From IMG/VR virus record IMGVR_UViG_2571042690_000014: a stretch of DNA of 13,000 nucleotides. One strand, given 5' to 3'. The notes beneath the pieces were generated by a model that did no database searches, was not told the origin of the DNA, and worked only from the letters and a program-made list of their open reading frames with translations. This stretch comes from a virus. Taxonomy: Duplodnaviria > Heunggongvirae > Uroviricota > Caudoviricetes. The position numbers and the translations under genes were made by a program. Below, piece after piece: positions 2,298-13,000 of this stretch; positions within the stretch are counted from its first letter, which is position 1; each line of letters opens with the position of its first letter.

Positions 2298-5200
2298 ATG
2301 GGCAAAGGAAGCAGTAAGGGGCATACCCCGCGCGAAGCGAAGGACAACCTGAAATCCACGCAATTACTGAGTGTGATCGATGCCATCAGCGAAGGGCCGA
2401 TTGAAGGTCCGGTGGATGGATTAAAAAGCGTGCTGCTGAACAGTACACCGGTGCTGGACAGTGAGGGGAATACCAACATCTCCGGTGTTACGGTGGTGTT
2501 CCGGGCAGGTGAGCAGGAGCAGACACCGCCGGAGGGATTTGAATCCTCCGGTTCCGAGACGGTGCTGGGTACGGAAGTGAAATACGACACGCCGATCACC
2601 CGCACCATCACGTCGGCAAACATCGACCGTCTGCGCTTTACCTTCGGTGTGCAGGCACTGGTGGAAACCACCTCAAAGGGGGACAGGAATCCATCGGAAG
2701 TCCGCCTGCTGGTTCAGATACAACGTAACGGTGGCTGGGTGACGGAAAAAGACATCACCATTAAGGGTAAAACCACCTCACAGTATCTGGCCTCAGTGGT
2801 GGTGGATAACCTGCCGCCGCGCCCGTTTAATATCCGGATGCGCAGGATGACGCCGGACAGCACCACAGACCAGCTGCAGAACAAAACGCTCTGGTCGTCA
2901 TACACCGAAATCATCGATGTGAAACAGTGCTACCCGAACACGGCACTGGTCGGCGTACAGGTGGACTCGGAGCAGTTCGGCAGCCAGCAGGTGAGTCGTA
3001 ATTATCATCTTCGCGGGCGCATTCTGCAGGTGCCGTCGAACTATAACCCGCAGACGCGGCAATACAGCGGTATCTGGGACGGAACGTTTAAGCCGGCATA
3101 CAGCAACAACATGGCCTGGTGTCTGTGGGATATGCTGACCCATCCGCGCTACGGCATGGGAAAACGTCTTGGTGCGGCAGATGTGGATAAATGGGCGCTG
3201 TATGTCATCGGCCAGTACTGCGACCAGTCGGTGCCGGACGGCTTTGGCGGCACGGAGCCGCGCATCACCTGTAATGCGTACCTGACCACACAGCGTAAGG
3301 CGTGGGATGTGCTCAGTGATTTCTGCTCGGCGATGCGCTGTATGCCGGTATGGAACGGGCAGACGCTGACGTTCGTGCAGGACCGGCCGTCGGATAATGT
3401 GTGGACCTATAACCGCAGTAATGTGGTGATGCCGGATGATGGCGCGCCGTTCCGCTACAGTTTCAGCGCCCTGAAGGACCGCCATAATGCCGTTGAGGTG
3501 AACTGGACTGACCCGGATAACGGCTGGGAAACGGCAACAGAGCTTGTGGAGGACACGCAGGCCATTGCCCGTTATGGTCGTAATGTCACGAAGATGGATG
3601 CCTTTGGCTGTACCAGCCGGGGGCAGGCACACCGCGCCGGGCTGTGGCTGATTAAAACGGAGCTGCTGGAAACGCAGACCGTGGACTTCAGCGTGGGCGC
3701 AGAAGGGCTTCGCCATGTACCGGGCGATGTTATTGAAATCTGCGATGATGACTATGCCGGTATCAGCACCGGTGGTCGTGTGCTGGCGGTGAGCAGCCAG
3801 ACCCGGACGCTGACGCTCGACCGTGAAATCACGCTGCCATCCTCCGGCACCACGCTGATAAGCCTGGTTGACGGAAGTGGCAATCCGGTCAGCGTGCAGG
3901 TCCAGTCCGTCACCGACGGCGTGAAGGTGAAAGTGAGCCGGGTTCCTGACGGCGTTGCAGAATACAGCGTGTGGGGGCTGAAGTTGCCGACGTTGCGCCA
4001 GCGCCTGTTCCGCTGTGTGAGTATCCGTGAGAACGACGACGGCACGTATGCCATCACCGCCGTGCAGCATGTACCGGAAAAAGAAGCCATCGTGGATAAC
4101 GGGGCGCACTTTGACGGCGACCAGAGCGGCACGGTGAATGGTGTCACGCCGCCAGCGGTGCAGCACCTGGCCGCAGAAGTCACTGCAGACAGCGGGGAAT
4201 ATCAGGTGCTGGCGCGATGGGACACACCGAAGGTGGTGAAGGGCGTGAGCTTCCTGCTCCGTCTGACCGTAACAGCGGACGACGGCAGTGAGCGGCTGGT
4301 CAGCACGGCCCGGACGACGGAAACCACATACCGCTTCAGGCAACTGGCGCTGGGGCGTTACACGCTGACGGTCCGGGCGGTAAATGCGTGGGGGCAGCAG
4401 GGCGATCCGGCATCGGTATCGTTCCGGATTGCGGCACCGGCAGCGCCTGTCACTATTGAACTGATACCAGGGTATTTTCAGATAACAGCGGTCCCGAAAC
4501 TGGCTGTATATGACCCGACGGTGCAGTTTGAGTTCTGGTTCTCGGAAAAGCGGATTATCGATATCAGGCAGGTTGAAACCAGCGCGCGTTATCTTGGTAC
4601 GGCGCTGTACTGGATAGCCGCCAGTAGCAATATTAAGCCGGGTTATGATTATTACTTTTATATCCGCAGCGTGAACACCGTTGGTAAATCGGCATTTGTG
4701 GAGGCCGTTGGTCGGGCGAGCGATGATGCGGAAGGTTATCTGAATTTTTATAAAGGGTTGATCAATAAAACGCATCTCGGCAAGGAACTGCTGGAAAACT
4801 TTGAGCTGACGGAAGATAACGCCAGCAAACTGGAGGAGTTTTCGAAAGAGTGGAAGGACGCCAACGATAAATGGAATGCCATGTGGGGCGTCAAAATTGA
4901 GCAGACCAAAGACGGCAAACATTATGTCGCGGGGCTTGGCCTCAGCATGGAGGATACGGAGGAAGGCAAACTGAGCCAGTTCCTGGTTGCCGCTAACCGT
5001 ATCGCGTTTATTGACCCGGCAAACGGGAATGAAACGCCGATGTTTGTGGCGCAGGGCAACCAGATATTCATGAACGACGTGTTCCTGAAGCGCCTGACGG
5101 CCCCCACCATTACCAGCGGCGGTAATCCTCCGGCATTTTCCCTGACACCGGACGGGCGGCTGACGGCGAAAAATGCCGATATCAGCGGTAACGTGAATGC

Positions 5201-5693
5201 GAACTCCGGGACGCTCAACAACGTCACGATTAACGAGAACTGCCGGGTTCTGGGAAAACTGTCCGCGAACCAGATTGAAGGCGATCTCGTTAAAACAGTG
5301 GGCAAAGCTTTCCCCCGTGACTCCCGGGCACCGGAGCGGTGGCCATCAGGGACCATTACCGTCAGGGTTTATGACGATCAGCCGTTTGACCGGCAAATTG
5401 TTATTCCGGCTGTGGCATTCAGTGGCGCTAAGCATGAGAGAGAGCATACTGATATTTACTCCTCATGCCGTCTGATAGTGCGGAAAAACGGTGCTGAAAT
5501 TTATAACCGTACCGCGCTGGATAATACGCTGATTTACAGTGGCGTTATTGATATGCCTGCCGGTCACGGTCACATGACGCTGGAGTTTTCGGTGTCAGCA
5601 TGGCTGGTAAATGGCTGGTATCCCACAGCAAGTATCAGCGATTTGCTGGTTGTTGTGATGAAGAAAGCCACTGCAGGCATCACGATTAGCTGA
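2298..5693 (+). CDS. J: Central tail fibre / host specificity protein J (lambda gpJ-like)
   Basis: The 1131-aa ORF is near-identical to lambda J over the N-terminal ~980 residues ([43 protein letters not shown]...). A GGAG ribosome-binding site precedes the ATG. The C-terminal ~150 aa diverge from lambda J as I remember it. Confidence 0.95.
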
Positions 5694-5711
5694 ATTTTAT
5701 AACCCAGATAC

Positions 5712-5738
5712 GGGCACCAGAAATGGTGCCTTTTTTAT
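5712..5738 (+). terminator. Rho-independent terminator downstream of J
   Basis: GGCACCA-GAAA-TGGTGCC is a perfect 7-bp stem followed by TTTTTTATT, 20 nt after the J stop codon. Confidence 0.6.
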
Positions 5739-5760
5739 TGCAGAAAAGCGAGAGGTAATT

Positions 5761-6360
5761 ATGCGTAAATTATGTGCTGTTATTCTATCCGCAGTAGTCT
5801 GGCTGGTTGCCGCTGGTACGCCAGCGAGCGCAGCAGAGCATCAGTCCACACTAAGCGCCGGGTATCTTCAGACCCATACTGATATGCCAGGCAGTGATGA
5901 CCTGAAGGGCATTAACGTGAAATACCGTTATGAATTTACGGACACGCTGGGGCTGGTGACGTCATTCAGTTATGCCAATGCCAAAGATGAGCAAAAAACG
6001 CATTACAGCGATACCCGCTGGCATGAAGATTCAGTGCGTAACCGCTGGTTCAGCATGATGGCGGGGCCATCTGTACGCGTGAATGAATGGTTCAGTGCTT
6101 ATGCGATGGCAGGTGTGGCTTACAGCCGTGTTTCGACGTTCTCCGGGGATTATCTCCGCGTAACTGACAACAAGGGGAAAACGCACGATGTGCTGACCGG
6201 AAGTGATGACGATCGCCACAGCAACACGTCTCTGGCGTGGGGAGCTGGCGTGCAGTTTAACCCGACCGAATCCGTGGCCATTGATATTGCTTATGAAGGC
6301 TCCGGCAGTGGCGACTGGCGCACTGACGGTTTCATCGTGGGTGTCGGTTATAAGTTCTGA
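5761..6360 (+). CDS. lom: Outer membrane protein Lom (Ail/Lom/OmpX family beta-barrel), phage moron
   Basis: The 199-aa ORF has a signal peptide (MRKLCAVILSAVVWLVAAGTPASA), the Lom motif KGINVKYRYE and a C-terminus DIAYEGSGSGDWRTDGFIVGVGYKF ending in an aromatic residue, matching lambda Lom. The ribosome-binding site is GAGAGG, and the position after J is as in lambda. Confidence 0.9.
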   Translation: MRKLCAVILSAVVWLVAAGTPASAAEHQSTLSAGYLQTHTDMPGSDDLKGINVKYRYEFTDTLGLVTSFSYANAKDEQKTHYSDTRWHEDSVRNRWFSMMAGPSVRVNEWFSAYAMAGVAYSRVSTFSGDYLRVTDNKGKTHDVLTGSDDDRHSNTSLAWGAGVQFNPTESVAIDIAYEGSGSGDWRTDGFIVGVGYKF

Positions 6361-6386
6361 TTAGCCAGGTAACACAGTGTTATGAC

Positions 6387-6413
6387 AGCCCGCCGGTTCA
6401 GGCGGGCTTTTTT
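6387..6413 (+). terminator. Rho-independent terminator downstream of lom
   Basis: AGCCCGCC-GGTTCA-GGCGGGCT followed by TTTTTT. The equivalent hairpin is present after lom in lambda (recalled from memory). Confidence 0.6.
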
Positions 6414-6481
6414 GTGCACAGAAAACCCCCAGCTAGGCTGGGGGTTCCGGAAAGCTTTCAGCTTTAAGCCAGTTATTAAAA

Positions 6482-6550
6482 CCCCTTTTGATTTGTTAAA
6501 ACACCTTGCGGTCTGGCAACTGCAAGTGTCAAACAAGAAATCAAAAGGGG
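6482..6550 (+). promoter_or_regulatory. Stem-loop sequestering the tnpA ribosome-binding site (IS200-type translational control structure)
   Basis: The left arm CCCCTTTTGATTTGTT (6482-6497) is nearly complementary to AACAAGAAATCAAAAGGGG (6532-6550), which overlaps the ribosome-binding site for the ATG at 6557. Confidence 0.45.
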
Positions 6551-6556
6551 GTCCCA

Positions 6557-7015
6557 ATGGGGAACGAAAAGAGCTTAGCGCACACCCGATGGAACTGTAA
6601 ATATCACATAGTTTTTGCGCCAAAATACCGAAGACAGGTGTTCTACAGAGAGAAGCGTAGAGCAATAGGCAGTATTTTGAGAAAGCTGTGTGAGTGGAAA
6701 AGTGTACGGATTCTGGAAGCTGAATGCTGTGCAGATCATATCCATATGCTTGTGGAGATCCCGCCCAAAATGAGCGTATCCGGCTTTATGGGATATCTGA
6801 AAGGGAAAAGCAGTCTGATGCTTTACGAGCAGTTTGGTGATTTGAAATTCAAATACAGGAACAGGGAGTTCTGGTGCAGAGGGTACTACGTCGATACGGT
6901 GGGTAAGAACACGGCGAAGATACAGGATTACATAAAGCACCAGCTTGAAGAGGATAAAATGGGAGAGCAGTTATCGATTCCCTATCCGGGCAGCCCGTTT
7001 ACGGGCCGTAAGTAA
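6557..7015 (+). CDS. tnpA: IS200/IS605-family Y1 (HUH) transposase TnpA
   Basis: The 152-aa product from the Met at 6557 (MGNEKSLAHTRWNCKYHIVFAPKYRRQVF...) has the HUH motif HIHMLVEI and a downstream catalytic Tyr region (REFWCRGYYVDTVG). The ORF track's longer form (6506) begins upstream of the ribosome-binding site and is less likely. Confidence 0.85.
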   Translation: MGNEKSLAHTRWNCKYHIVFAPKYRRQVFYREKRRAIGSILRKLCEWKSVRILEAECCADHIHMLVEIPPKMSVSGFMGYLKGKSSLMLYEQFGDLKFKYRNREFWCRGYYVDTVGKNTAKIQDYIKHQLEEDKMGEQLSIPYPGSPFTGRK

Positions 7016-7135
7016 CGAAGTTGGATGCAAATGTCAGATCGTGTGCGCCTGTTAGGGCGCGGCTGGTAAGAGAGCCTTATAGGCGCATTTGAAAAACCTC
7101 CGGCTATGCCGGAGGATATTTATTGTGGAGTGGAT

Positions 7136-9514
7136 ATGGCAGCAGTAAAAATCTCAGGTGTGCTGAAAGATGGTGCGGGAAAACCAATACAGAACTGCAC
7201 TATTCAACTGAAGGCAAAGCGTAACAGCACCACGGTACTGGTGAACACGGTGGCTTCTGAAAATCCGGATGAAGCCGGACGTTACAGCATGGATGTTGAG
7301 CATGGTCAGTACAGCGTCACCCTGCTGGTTGAAGGTTTTCCGCCTTCACATGCCGGGACCATTACCGTCTATGAAGGTTCCAGACCAGGTACGCTGAATG
7401 ATTTTCTCGGTGCCATGACGGAGGATGATGTCCGACCGGAGGCACTGCGCCGCTTTGAGCAGATGGTGGAAGAAGCGGCACGCAACGCTGAAGCCGCCTC
7501 TCAGAGCGCAGCGGCGGCAAAGAAATCCGAAACTGCAGCGGCATCATCGAAGAACGCGGCGAAAACCTCAGAAACGAATGCAGCTAACAGCGCACAGGCG
7601 GCAGCGACCTCAAAGACTGCATCGGCAAACTCCGCGACAGCAGCCAAAAAATCAGAAACCAACGCGAAAAATAGCGAGACAGCCGCAAAGACGAGCGAAA
7701 CCAACGCAAAGTCCAGCCAGACGGCAGCGAAAACCAGCGAAACGAATGCCAAAGCCAGTGAAACTGCGGCAAAAAACAGCCAGGTTGCAGCAGCCCAAAG
7801 CGAGAGCGCGGCAGCCGGTTCTGCGACTTCAGCAGCTGGATCAGCAACTGCTGCGGCTAACAGCCGGAAAGCTGCGAAGACGAGTGAAACTAACGCAAAG
7901 TCCAGCCAGACGGCAGCGAAGACCAGCGAAACGAATGCCAAAGCCAGCGAAACTGCGGCGAAAAACAGTCAGGATGCAGCAGCCCAAAGCGAGAGTGCTG
8001 CAGCTGGTTCTGCAAGCGCGGCGGCTGCTTCTGCCACTGCATCAGCCAACAGTCAAAAAGCAGCAAAAACCAGTGAAACCAATGCAAAGACAAGCGAGAC
8101 TGCAGCGGCGAACTCGGCGAAAGCATCCGCTGCAAGCCAGACCGCTGCAAAAGCAAGTGAAGACGCAGCCAGAGAGTATGCAAGCCAGGCAGCAGATCCG
8201 TATAAATATGTCTTACAGCCGCTGCCTGATGTGTGGATACCGTTTAACGATTCACTGGATATGATTACGGGCTTTTCGCCATCATATAAAAAGATTGTTA
8301 TTGGTGACGACGAAATAACGATGCCTGGCGACAAGATTGTTAAGTTTAAACGTGCATCGAAAGCAACCTATATTAACAAATCTGGTGTGCTGACAGAGGC
8401 TGCCATTGATGAGCCACGATTTGAACGTGATGGCCTGCTTATTGAGGGGCAAAGAACTAATCTTCTGCTTAATTCAACAAATCCATCTAAATGGAATAAG
8501 TCAGGCAATCTGGAACTCACAGAAATATCCACGGATTCTTTTAATTTTACTTATGGGAGATTTACTGTAAAAGATACTCTTATTGGTCAGACAAGTGCTA
8601 TTAATATCGTAACGATTTCTGGCAGTAAAGGGTTTGATGTCACAGGTGATGAAAAATATGTGACCATTTCATGCCGTGTAAGAAGTGATGTTGAAAATAT
8701 AAGGTGTCGTTTAAGATTTGAACACCATGATGGTTATACTTACACTTTTTTGGGAGATGCTTACCTCAATTTATCAACACTTGTAATTGATAAAACTGGT
8801 ACTGCTGCAGACCGTATTATTGCAAAGGCTGTAAAAGATGAGGTTACTGGTTGGATTTTCTATCAGGCTACAATTAATGCACTAGATACAGAGAGCATGA
8901 TTGGTGCGATGGTTCAATACGCTCCTGTAAAAGGTTCAGGTACAGCATCTGGAGACTATCTGGATATCGCAACTCCACAAGTGGAAGGTGGATCAAGTGC
9001 TTCGTCATTTATTGTAACTGATATAACTGCAAGCACTCGCGCAAGCGATATGGTGACAGTCCCAATCAAGAATAACCTTTATAATCTTCCTTTTACGGTT
9101 CTTTGTGAGGTACATAAGAACTGGTATAAAACGCCAAATGCAGCACCGCGTGTTTTTGATACCGGCGGTCATCAAACCGGAGCGGCTATTATTCTTGGCT
9201 TCGGTCGTTCAACAGATTACGACGGATTTCCTTATTGTGATATAGGTTTGGCTAACAGACGGGTAAACGAAAACGCATCGCTTGAAAAAATGGTTATGGG
9301 GATGCGTGTAAAGTCAGATCAGTCTACGTGCTCAGTAAGTAACGGGCGTATATCCAGCGAAAAGAAAGCCACATGGTCCTATATTCAGAACTCCGCAATT
9401 ATCCGTATTGGAGGCCAGACTACAGCCGGGTTGCGTCATTTATTTGGTCATGTCAGGAATTTCAGAATATGGCACAAGGCATTGACTGATGCTCAGATGG
9501 GGGAGTCAATCTAA
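7136..9514 (+). CDS. stf: Side tail fibre protein Stf (lambda Stf-like N-terminus, divergent distal domain)
   Basis: From the ATG at 7136, MAAVKISGVLKDGAGKPIQNCTIQLKAKRNSTTVLVNTVASENPDEAGRYSMDVEHGQYSV... matches the lambda Stf N-terminus. It is followed by Ala/Ser/Thr-rich KTSETNAK-type repeats and an AT-richer C-terminal region that does not match lambda. The ribosome-binding site is GGAG at 7127-7130; the ORF track start at 7106 lies inside the IS200 right end and is unlikely. Confidence 0.85.
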   Translation: MAAVKISGVLKDGAGKPIQNCTIQLKAKRNSTTVLVNTVASENPDEAGRYSMDVEHGQYSVTLLVEGFPPSHAGTITVYEGSRPGTLNDFLGAMTEDDVRPEALRRFEQMVEEAARNAEAASQSAAAAKKSETAAASSKNAAKTSETNAANSAQAAATSKTASANSATAAKKSETNAKNSETAAKTSETNAKSSQTAAKTSETNAKASETAAKNSQVAAAQSESAAAGSATSAAGSATAAANSRKAAKTSETNAKSSQTAAKTSETNAKASETAAKNSQDAAAQSESAAAGSASAAAASATASANSQKAAKTSETNAKTSETAAANSAKASAASQTAAKASEDAAREYASQAADPYKYVLQPLPDVWIPFNDSLDMITGFSPSYKKIVIGDDEITMPGDKIVKFKRASKATYINKSGVLTEAAIDEPRFERDGLLIEGQRTNLLLNSTNPSKWNKSGNLELTEISTDSFNFTYGRFTVKDTLIGQTSAINIVTISGSKGFDVTGDEKYVTISCRVRSDVENIRCRLRFEHHDGYTYTFLGDAYLNLSTLVIDKTGTAADRIIAKAVKDEVTGWIFYQATINALDTESMIGAMVQYAPVKGSGTASGDYLDIATPQVEGGSSASSFIVTDITASTRASDMVTVPIKNNLYNLPFTVLCEVHKNWYKTPNAAPRVFDTGGHQTGAAIILGFGRSTDYDGFPYCDIGLANRRVNENASLEKMVMGMRVKSDQSTCSVSNGRISSEKKATWSYIQNSAIIRIGGQTTAGLRHLFGHVRNFRIWHKALTDAQMGESI
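7688..8065 (+). repeat. Tandem duplication of a 189-bp (63-codon) unit inside stf
   Basis: AAGACGAGCGAAACCAACGCAAAGTCCAGCCAGACGGCAGCGAAAACCAGCGAAACGAATGCCAAAGCCAGTGAAACTGCGGC... from 7688 recurs from 7877 with only a few substitutions. It encodes two copies of TSETNAKSSQTAAKTSETNAKASETAAKNSQ.AAAQSESAAAGSA. Confidence 0.75.
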
Positions 9515-9804: not shown

Positions 9805-10509
9805 ATGGCTACATCGACAGTAATTCCAGGAGACATCACCACGTTAAAGGGAGATGTCAGTAAAGCCAAGGAAGATATTTCCTCAATTAACGGAAAAGTA
9901 TCAACGCTTCAGGCTGATATGACCAGTGCAAAGCAGGATATCAGCACCAGATACACAAAAACTGAAGTTGATAATAAGCTGAAAAACAAACTGGAAGTGA
10001 ACGCTCTGGAAAGCGGTCGTTATGGTGGAGATTTTTACCCGTTGACTGGCCGTGAAGCGTTTTATTTGTGGGGATTGGGCACGACTACAGCGGCGGCAAA
10101 CCTTTATCTTAATCCTGACCCCGCAATTTCGTCTGTGCTGCGGTCAACATCGTCTATCCGCTATAAACATTCAGTAGAGACAATAGATTCAGAGCACGCC
10201 GATCTCATTTTCAGGATGCGCCCTGTGTGGTACAGGTCACAATGCGAAAATGACAGGCGTGACTGGGGATTCTACGGATTGATTGCCGAGGAAGTAGGAG
10301 AAATTGCCCCTCAGTTTGTACACTGGCGACCAGCTAACGAAGATGATGCACCGGAAGCTATTTCCAGCAATGGCCTTGTTGCCGAAGGTGTAATGTACGA
10401 ACGTCTGGTTGTTCCACTGATTCACCATATCCAGAAGCTGACTGAAAGAGTTGATGAACTTGAGTCAGAATTAAAGTTGTTATCCGTTTCCCGAAGCGAT
10501 ATCGGATAA
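9805..10509 (+). CDS. Fibre-like coiled-coil protein with C-terminal intramolecular-chaperone (peptidase S74-like) domain
   Basis: It has a GAGGGAG ribosome-binding site. The N-terminus carries repeated coiled-coil-like units (GDVSKAKEDISSINGKVSTLQADMTSAKQDISTRYTKTEVDNKLKNKLE). The C-terminus fits the S74 / chaperone-of-endosialidase pattern: SIRYK (S-x-R-x-K), then LIFRMRPVWYRS, WGFYGLIAEEVGEIAPQFV and VMYERLVVPLIHHIQKLTERVDELESEL. The assignment is from memory of the family signature, not a search. Confidence 0.55.
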   Translation: MATSTVIPGDITTLKGDVSKAKEDISSINGKVSTLQADMTSAKQDISTRYTKTEVDNKLKNKLEVNALESGRYGGDFYPLTGREAFYLWGLGTTTAAANLYLNPDPAISSVLRSTSSIRYKHSVETIDSEHADLIFRMRPVWYRSQCENDRRDWGFYGLIAEEVGEIAPQFVHWRPANEDDAPEAISSNGLVAEGVMYERLVVPLIHHIQKLTERVDELESELKLLSVSRSDIG

Positions 10510-10807: not shown

Positions 10808-11159
10808 ATATAAAAGCCGCAGTAACTTGCCATGATAGGATACTGCGGCTGGCTGGTTAACTTTCGATAGTGCGAGTATTGAATGATTTCCAGCCGTTAC
10901 TGATTTTATATAACGGCAGTGGAATTATTCAACACACAGGCAAAACACAGGCAAAACGGAATAAGCTGAGAAAAAAAGCGTGCTTTCCCAATCTGGGGCA
11001 AATCACGTCTGAATGACACCTGAAAACAGGTGGTGGACTCAAGAAGGCTTGGAATATTCTTCTTTAATGTTATGTAATTCATTGATTTTTCGTGTACGAT
11101 TTTAAGACATTTATTCCAAGAAGAATTTTTAACTCTTTGATTTTTCTACTCTGTATCAT

Positions 11160-11221
11160 CGGTCTCGAAAACCGGAGTAGGGGCAACTCTACCGGGGGTT
11201 CAAATCCCCCTCTCTCCGCCA
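11160..11221 (+). other. Prophage att core: 62-nt 3' fragment of a tRNA-Ser (anticodon CGA, serU-type) gene, from anticodon stem to CCA
   Basis: CGGTCTCGAAAACCGGAGTAGGGGCAACTCTACCGGGGGTTCAAATCCCCCTCTCTCCGCCA has an anticodon stem-loop (anticodon CGA), a long variable arm, a T-arm GGGGGTTCAAATCCCCC and a 3' acceptor strand plus CCA. There is no 5' acceptor strand or D-arm upstream, so it is a partial copy, as expected for an att duplicate where a phage integrates into a tRNA gene. Confidence 0.7.
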
Positions 11222-11770
11222 CTTTATCAATGACTTATCTCCCGACTTCCCGCCTTGCTTTTCCTAAACAGAACAATCGTAGGATATTCTTGAAGGGTTA
11301 GATCGTCACTGTTTTCTGTTCGATACTGTGACATTCAGCACTTGATTCGCTATGGGTCTGACAGGAAGGTTTCGAGCGAAAATCTACAGTTATTCAGTCG
11401 TTTTCTTATCGGTCACCATTATTCTTTTAGACATTGATCCTATGAAACTGCCGCAAAGTTGCTGGCGGGAACTGAAGTTGCGTAGAGAAGGGGTCAATAA
11501 TTGAGCCAAAAAAGGAACGCGGCCGTCAGATTAAAGCCGCGGGACAAAGTCCATAATTTCCAAGAGTTGTTGAATTTCCCAGCTTTTTTGAAAGCCTTTG
11601 TATCATACTAACAAGTAAAAAAGGTTTAAACACCAAAATTAACCTATATTTCTGGTTAGCTTTACCATGACAGATGACTTGCTCCTGGAGACATTTGCGC
11701 TGCCAGTCTGTATGGCTGAGTTGTGTATTTATTGTTCGCCTTTTTCTCAGTTTTTTTCTACAGACATAAT

Positions 11771-12801: not shown

Positions 12802-13000
12802 ATGAAACATTCATTTGAAGTAAAACTTGCCGCTGTAAATCATTACCTGGCTGGTCATGCAGGCATCATTTCTACGGCAAAACTCTTTCAACTTTCTCAC
12901 ACCAGCCTCTCACACTGGATTAATCTTTTTCTTCTTCACGGTCCTCGGGCACTGGATTGCAGACACAAGCGTAGCTATTCTCCTGAAGATAAACTTTGCG
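12802..13000 (+). CDS. IS3-family (IS150-like) transposase OrfA, N-terminal part (runs off the window end)
   Basis: From the ATG at 12802 (ribosome-binding site AGGTG) the translation MKHSFEVKLAAVNHYLAGHAGIISTAKLFQLSHTSLSHWINLFLLHGPRAL... follows the helix-turn-helix OrfA pattern of IS150-like elements (FE.RL..VNHY....G..IS..F......W..L...HG). There is no stop codon within the window. Confidence 0.55.
   Translation, partial: MKHSFEVKLAAVNHYLAGHAGIISTAKLFQLSHTSLSHWINLFLLHGPRALDCRHKRSYSPEDKLC

Follow-up and report, generated by a model that had tools for sequence, protein, structure and literature searches.

The stretch of DNA analysed here (the window, 13,000 nt in full) covers the tail end of a lambdoid prophage, with the gene J (2298-5693), followed on the plus strand by lom (5761-6360), which codes for an outer-membrane protein of the Ail/Lom type (Pfam Ail_Lom, E=1.7e-127; RefSeq annotation in Escherichia coli EC958) and whose terminator is the target of the insertion described below, and by the side-tail-fibre gene stf (7127-9514, plus strand). 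Besides these genes the window contains three small fibre-associated ORFs and zinT, a chromosomal gene on the strand opposite to that of the prophage genes. A query spanning 6300-7250 is 100% identical in genomes of E. coli ST131, among them EC958, JJ1886 and JJ1887, and the order of the genes in the window is that of the RefSeq annotation in these genomes. The accessible part of the EC958 genome paper mentions neither the IS200C copy nor the prophage that carries it.

Several minor features accompany these genes. Between J and lom, at 5712-5739, a further hairpin with a T-tract resembles an intrinsic terminator (GGGCACCAGAAATGGTGCCT TTTTTATT), so that the late operon already has several terminators that need read-through. 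A second fibre-like ORF downstream of stf (9805-10509) contains a Peptidase_S74 domain (intramolecular chaperone of endosialidase). Between the last fibre ORF and zinT, a stretch at about 11150-11222 resembles the 3' part of a tRNA gene (...GGTTCAAATCCCCCTCTCTCCGCCA); ARAGORN found no complete tRNA in the window, and the stretch is probably a remnant of the duplicated attachment site at the prophage end. Just past zinT begins the transposase gene of the IS3-family element IS1397 (12802-13000; 13503-14851 in locus L004; EC958 annotation), which is truncated by the end of the window.

A 711-bp insertion between lom and stf

The DNA between lom and stf contains an IS200C element of 711 bp, GTGCACAG...GGATATTTATT, at 6414-7124 on the plus strand (register ±2 nt), delimited by comparison with empty sites and with copies elsewhere. 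When aligned with phage 2G7b, whose lom-stf junction is uninterrupted (...GGCGGGCTTTTTTGTGGAGTGGATATGGCAG...), the window equals that junction plus exactly 711 bp. Many E. coli genomes, 042 and PCN033 among them, match the empty site reconstructed by joining 6250-6413 to 7125-7290 at 100% identity over its 330 nt, and the empty junction is collinear with the lom/orf-401 junction of lambda (NC_001416). In the comparisons with 2G7b, E. coli and lambda alike, the filled site is the empty site plus 711 bp and a target-site duplication is absent. The initial annotation had described a clean insertion without target duplication, whose flanks rejoin as the contiguous lambda lom-stf sequence, and both statements hold. 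The element adjoins the last T of the lom terminator T-tract and has the same orientation as lom and stf.

The motif TTGTG is present at the left flank and again across the right junction, and six registers are therefore possible from the window alone. Copies elsewhere narrow the choice. The ends are constrained by 99% identical copies that lie between ren and ninB in Lambda_ev058 and PhiR63_2, by 35 complete copies in other species, in which conservation ends directly after ...GGAGGATATTTATT, and by a tandem pair (L099), in which the right end directly abuts GTCTATGG. Together, these copies place the element at 6414-7124 (GTGCACAG...TATTTATT), to within 2 nt on either side; since both the target and the right end finish in TT, the sequence does not single out one exact cleavage register. 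The insertion thus lies where the initial annotation had put it (6415-7124, about 710 bp), but the left end is shifted by one base. The flanks quoted there (TTTTTTGTG / GAGTGG...) also rejoin correctly but imply another register, 6417-7127; that both descriptions reconstitute the empty site is a result of the TTGTG present at the two junctions.

The same repeat could be read as a 5-bp target duplication around an element of 706 bp. This model was rejected, as it does not fit the site in Lambda_ev058 and PhiR63_2 and as other independent sites lack the repeat. The empty ren-ninB sequence of lambda does not fit this model either. The TTGTG repeat is a coincidence of register.

The element is a copy of IS200C

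The sole ORF of the element is tnpA (6557-7015, plus strand), which encodes an intact Y1 HUH transposase of 152 aa. The protein matches Pfam Y1_Tnp (E=3.8e-38, 130.7 bits) and the NCBIfam model NF033573, 'IS200/IS605 family transposase' (147.7 bits, cut-off 55), and its relatives in the PDB are 2ec2, 2a6m (IS608 TnpA, E=3.9e-19) and 2vhg. The HUH motif is formed by H61-I-H63 and the catalytic tyrosine is Y125, the residue changed in a catalytically dead IS200 mutant (PMC4513863). In EC958 the protein is RefSeq WP_000526135.1, 'IS200/IS605-like element IS200C family transposase', and the 100% identical E. coli copies carry the RefSeq IS200C annotation. The initial assignment to an IS200-type element is hence supported by Y1_Tnp, NF033573, the relationship to IS608 TnpA and the RefSeq name, and also by the RNA family STnc490.

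The match to STnc490 (Rfam RF01405; 6424-6547, plus strand) covers the left-end hairpin and the tnpA 5'UTR, scores 146.1 bits against a gathering score of 56 over the full-length model, and is the only Rfam family above threshold anywhere in the window. Two further Rfam hits, Trp_leader at 6333-6415 (21 bits), which is simply the lom terminator, and ST7-AS1_2 (24 bits), lie far below their gathering scores and were discarded as chance. The left-end hairpin itself (6424-6446, plus strand) is a perfect palindrome, as seen both in the fold and in the STnc490 alignment, and presumably is the left-end hairpin bound by the transposase. It corresponds to nts 12-34 of IS200, which reportedly terminate transcription in both directions and so protect tnpA from transcripts that enter from outside (Ellis et al. 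2015, PMC4513863). Further downstream, a 5'UTR stem-loop (6482-6550, plus strand; motif coordinates) buries the tnpA SD, AAGGGGGT, and corresponds to the stem-loop at nts 69-138 of the published IS200 anatomy (PMC4513863). The fold z values of these left-end and 5'UTR structures are -3.9 and -4.9, the latter belonging to the stem-loop. A terminator hairpin at the element's own left end and a structured ribosome-binding region had both been recognised initially, and the folds, together with the Rfam match for the latter, bear them out. The published anatomy further includes a 90-nt antisense RNA, art200, opposite the 5'UTR (PMC4513863). By analogy, applying this description to the tnpA start at 6557, an art200 sRNA of about 90 nt, complementary to the 5'UTR of tnpA together with its first three codons, is predicted on the minus strand at 6476-6565. 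A promoter scan detected no sigma-70-like site in 5700-7400.

At the other end, terminator scan and fold agree on a hairpin (CCTCCGGC/GCCGGAGG, 7097-7115) followed by a 9-nt T-rich tail, ATATTTATT, which ends the element (7097-7124, plus strand). This structure is terminator-like on both strands and is kept in 26 of the 35 complete copies, with divergence immediately after TTATT. An A-run, GAAAA, lies just 5' of each end hairpin, and the two termini, GTGCACAG... and ...TATTTATT, are not inverted repeats of one another.

The element combines a Y1 HUH TnpA, subterminal hairpins without inverted repeats, the absence of a target duplication and a short specific sequence abutting the left end, all of them defining features of the IS200/IS605 family. 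The left-end terminator hairpin, the stem-loop hiding the SD in the 5'UTR, the STnc490/art200 region and the near-identity to RefSeq IS200C copies place it in IS200 proper. Judged from its sequence, the best explanation of the whole, which we hold with high confidence and against whose identification of the element none of the results speaks, is that 6414-7124 represents IS200C (IS200 group, IS200/IS605 family) in complete and apparently functional form, within a lambdoid prophage of ST131. Public genomes already annotate both the element and this particular insertion between lom and stf, which are ordinary and known. The zinT gene presumably lies on the left replichore of the K-12 map, which would agree with the family rule of insertion into the lagging-strand template.

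Comparison with known elements

The closest relatives of the element are IS200 of Salmonella enterica and IS200C of E. coli, with which it shares the length of about 707-711 bp, tnpA as the only gene, the left-end terminator hairpin, the SD-hiding 5'UTR stem-loop and the art200 region (PMC4513863; Rfam match). The E. coli copies annotated as IS200C are 100% identical to it and a copy in Salmonella houtenae (H3) is 91.9% identical. The difference between the 707 bp quoted for Salmonella IS200 and the 711 bp obtained here by empty-site comparison is not material. Copies in Y. pestis, found with the left-end hairpin pattern, start with GTGCCCAGAA; they have both end hairpins, the terminal TTTATT and the position behind a hairpin and T-tract in common with the element in the window, whereas the host and the first 10 nt differ. 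We take these copies to be IS1541 (IS200 group; Y. pestis, Y. pseudotuberculosis).

More distant are IS608 of Helicobacter pylori and ISDra2, the models for the mechanism of the family, which have a homologous Y1 HUH TnpA and subterminal hairpins, lack inverted repeats and target duplication, and insert with the left end 3' of a short specific sequence (PMC3597680). IS608, however, has tnpB, targets TTAC and has no known need for a hairpin at the target, whereas the element in the window has tnpA only and its target is a T-tract, in practice nearly always one that follows a terminator hairpin. This niche is shared with the group IIC introns, which home just past the stem-loop of Rho-independent terminators (PMC7923331); these are unrelated retroelements with an RNA-based mechanism, and the resemblance is limited to the niche.

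IS200-group elements lie behind intrinsic terminators

The intrinsic terminator of lom (6387-6413, plus strand), identified by terminator scan and RNA fold, consists of an 8-bp GC-rich hairpin (AGCCCGCC/GGCGGGCT) and a T6 tract, and is unchanged in the empty sites. Both methods support the location of the element just after it, as the initial annotation had it. To this we added a sample of IS200-group elements of the left-hairpin subtype, obtained by a left-end-hairpin scan of one genome per species, which gave 120 loci in Yersinia, Serratia, Citrobacter, Phytobacter, Vibrio, Kosakonia and metagenome bins. At nearly all of the 120 loci the element has a GC-rich hairpin and then a T-tract on its left. 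Directly upstream of the insertion point, 110 of the 120 distinct flanks (92%) have a stem of 8 bp or more, compared with only 8.6% of 1601 control sites, which were the other T-rich hexamers TTT(T/A)TT in the same loci. At least 5 T occur among the last 8 nt in 113 of the 120 flanks, and 106 of the 120 pass the joint test (a stem of at least 5 bp and at least 5 T in the last 8 nt). A looser, fold-based test was positive for 99 of 117 sites and for 35 of 41 distinct sites in IMG/VR, against 26% of controls.

The geometry of these sites is also narrow. The gap between the insertion point and the last G/C pair of the hairpin is most often 6-8 nt, and positions -6 to -1 are T in 87-98% of the 120 sites, with the exception of position -3, which is T or A in 99 of the 120. 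The target hexamer is TTTTTT in the window and TTT(T/A)TT as a consensus of other copies, resembling the right terminal TTTATT of the element itself. Indeed, the right end of the element has the same layout as the targets, a hairpin and then ATATTTATT. The insertion in Lambda_ev058, behind the terminator downstream of ren, is a typical case, like that in the window behind the lom terminator. These counts demonstrate statistically that the IS200-group elements sampled occupy positions directly 3' of intrinsic terminators. At least part of this association has been published already: a 2026 survey found an excess of terminator-like sequences just upstream of insertion sequences, with IS200/IS605 showing it most strongly (PMC13548323).

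On the established mechanism of the IS200/IS605 family, the element would have arrived by single-strand 'peel and paste', in which the top strand is excised as a circle and enters single-stranded DNA 3' of a short target, and the target here would have been the T-tract TTTTTT. The GAAAA runs 5' of the end hairpins are plausible guide sequences for a T-rich cleavage site. In IS608, guide sequences of this position pair with the cleavage and target sequence (PMC3597680), and by analogy an A-rich guide would fit a T-rich target. Behind the lom terminator, the element would be shielded from lom transcription in the lysogen.

The adjacency to terminators can be explained by selection, an explanation that we consider a serious one, if somewhat short of an even chance. 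According to it, IS200 enters any T-rich pentamer or hexamer in single-stranded DNA, and only copies behind terminators persist. Such copies would be intergenic, non-polar and transcriptionally shielded, and the position between lom and stf would then say nothing about recognition of a hairpin. The target of IS608 is read only as a tetranucleotide, through base pairing with the left-end guide (PMC3597680), long T-runs themselves concentrate at terminators, and the authors of the survey see in the upstream terminators a setting where transposase expression is held down and persistence is favoured (PMC13548323). Set against this are the strength of the enrichment relative to other T-rich hexamers of the same loci (92% vs 8.6%), the narrow spacing of 6-8 nt between hairpin and insertion, and the architecture of hairpin and T-rich tail that the element's right end shares. 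These points are suggestive of recognition but no proof of it.

One may speculate, tentatively and as a possibility rather than a probability, that IS200-group transposases recognise the structure of intrinsic terminators in single-stranded DNA, which would mimic the right end of the element itself (a GC-rich hairpin with a T-rich tail that ends 6-9 nt on), and do not merely read a short T-rich word. If terminators are recognised structurally, every terminator would be a potential landing pad and the junction of lom terminator and stf a recurrent hot spot, in which the element rides the late operon at little cost. Targeting, as opposed to selection, would help to explain the harmless persistence of a nearly immobile element, and would provide a testable model of how structure could guide a Y1 transposase to its targets.

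Consequences for stf

The stf gene (7127-9514, plus strand) begins with its SD, GGAG at 7127-7130, and its ATG at 7136, the RefSeq start in EC958, and comprises an intact ORF of 792 aa (Pfam phage_tail_N). Its product is 86% identical to Stf of 2G7b in a full-length alignment. Both SD and ATG lie outside the IS and are identical in the empty sites; the SD is 3 nt from the right end of the IS, in line with the few base pairs noted initially. An ATG within the right-end hairpin, at 7106, is in frame with stf, and the mechanical ORF that it opens (7106-9514) is 10 codons longer than the real gene. It was rejected as the stf start, since the empty sites and RefSeq use the ATG at 7136 with its own GGAG, and it could trap automatic calling of start codons.

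Insertion at this place has occurred more than once. Three other independent IS200 insertions lie between different terminators and the SD/ATG of stf homologues in other lambdoid prophages, all codirectional with stf. In L145 (IS start 6338, plus strand) the IS is identical at 711/711 positions (...GCGGGCTTTTTT / IS / TATTGGTGGAAAAGTATGACAGTAAAA) and the upstream Lom is 85% identical; in L135 it matches at 706/711 positions (...GCGGGTTTTTTATT / IS / GTGGGGGGAATATGGCAGTAAAG); and in L136 it is a Salmonella-like copy with 655/711 (...GGCAGCCTTTTTTT / IS / ATGGAGGTAATATGCCAGTACTT). The lom-stf junction is hence a recurrent landing site.

In the uninterrupted phages the lom terminator already lies 11 nt upstream of the stf SD. 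The late genes of lambda that follow terminators are expressed because RNA polymerase modified by Q reads through terminators. As a strong intrinsic terminator precedes stf even in uninterrupted phages, stf expression would depend on Q antitermination, and since Q-modified polymerase ignores terminators, the additional IS200 hairpins should be read through as well. With lambdoid late transcription antiterminated by Q and the SD and ORF of stf untouched, the insertion probably makes little difference to fibre production. Side tail fibres are, moreover, dispensable in lambda.

The opposite outcome, raised in the initial annotation, would be a polar block, in which the left-end terminator, the structured RNA and the right-end hairpin stop late transcription or impair stf translation, so that stf and the downstream fibre genes are silenced or strongly reduced. 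IS200 first came to light as a polar insertion in hisD, its left-end hairpin reportedly terminates transcription in both directions (PMC4513863), and in the window the right-end hairpin is terminator-like on the plus strand and ends 9 nt before the junction. Furthermore, in the minimum-energy fold of the new junction the IS tail (7116-7124) pairs with 7129-7137 and overlaps the SD and AUG of stf. The helix concerned, however, is a weak one of 9 bp, built from A-U and G-U pairs alone, and the centroid structure lacks it; it might have a small effect on stf translation. Against a block in transcription, the strong terminator already present before stf in uninterrupted phages has to be passed in any case, and the Q antitermination that achieves this would override the added terminators too. 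The same IS also lies codirectionally in the early rightward operon, between ren and ninB and upstream of Q, in Lambda_ev058 and PhiR63_2, both deposited as phage genomes (a literature search on phages ev058 and PhiR63 found nothing useful). As IS200 has, in addition, inserted independently at the equivalent place upstream of stf at least three more times, and as the stf ORF shows no decay, we consider a polar block unlikely.

Distribution and mobility

Among 5426 complete E. coli genomes, 153 have the filled lom-IS-stf junction at 100% identity; the junction is also present in 8 IMG/VR contigs, but in none of 50,697 deposited phage records. The IS itself is far from confined to this junction: full-length copies occur in 2064 genomes, on chromosomes and plasmids, at up to 35 matching places per genome. 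Some of the copies at other E. coli sites are 100% identical to that in the window, and such identity at different sites would indicate recent mobility in E. coli. Transposition of IS200 is reported to be very rare (PMC4513863), and the insertion between lom and stf may therefore be old and may have entered the prophage by recombination.

The copy could also have been retained mainly as a source of regulatory RNA (an sRNA derived from 5'tnpA, and art200) and less as a mobile element, an idea proposed for IS200 in Salmonella, where regulatory roles of the 5'tnpA RNA are reported (PMC5435999; bioRxiv 10.1101/2024.06.26.600842). The full STnc490/5'UTR module is indeed intact, but the same holds for the transposase ORF and the two ends, the material examined points to no known E. 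coli target, and copies with 100% identity reside at different sites (L145; 22 matching places in strain 7/2). On balance, retention for regulatory RNA appears improbable. That the 711-bp segment is ancestral phage DNA which other phages have lost, rather than an insertion, can practically be dismissed, as this DNA forms a complete IS that recurs at unrelated sites in many species and as the empty site (at least 80% of its length) occurs in 4223 genomes against the 153 with the filled site.

As a feature of a much-studied clone, ST131, the insertion can serve at most to mark a lineage and to warn of a pitfall in ORF calling. Two loci (L146 and L158) have the lom-IS200-stf junction of the window next to a J whose C-terminus is just 87-90% identical in protein, which implies that the junction also moves between prophages by recombination.

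Other arrangements of the element were seen in the sampled loci. Two of them (L099 and L170) carry IS200 copies in tandem, in which the right end (...GGATATTTATT) is joined directly to the next left end (GTCTATGG... and GTGCCCAG..., respectively), an arrangement that would follow from use of the element's own right end as a target or from integration of a circle junction. In another (L096), a lone left-end hairpin is flanked by an inverted copy of the first 10 nt (GTCTATAGAA-hairpin-TTCTATAGAC) and is followed by an A-run; there is no transposase gene within about 700 nt of this hairpin, which may be a hairpin-only remnant or a miniature derivative of the element.
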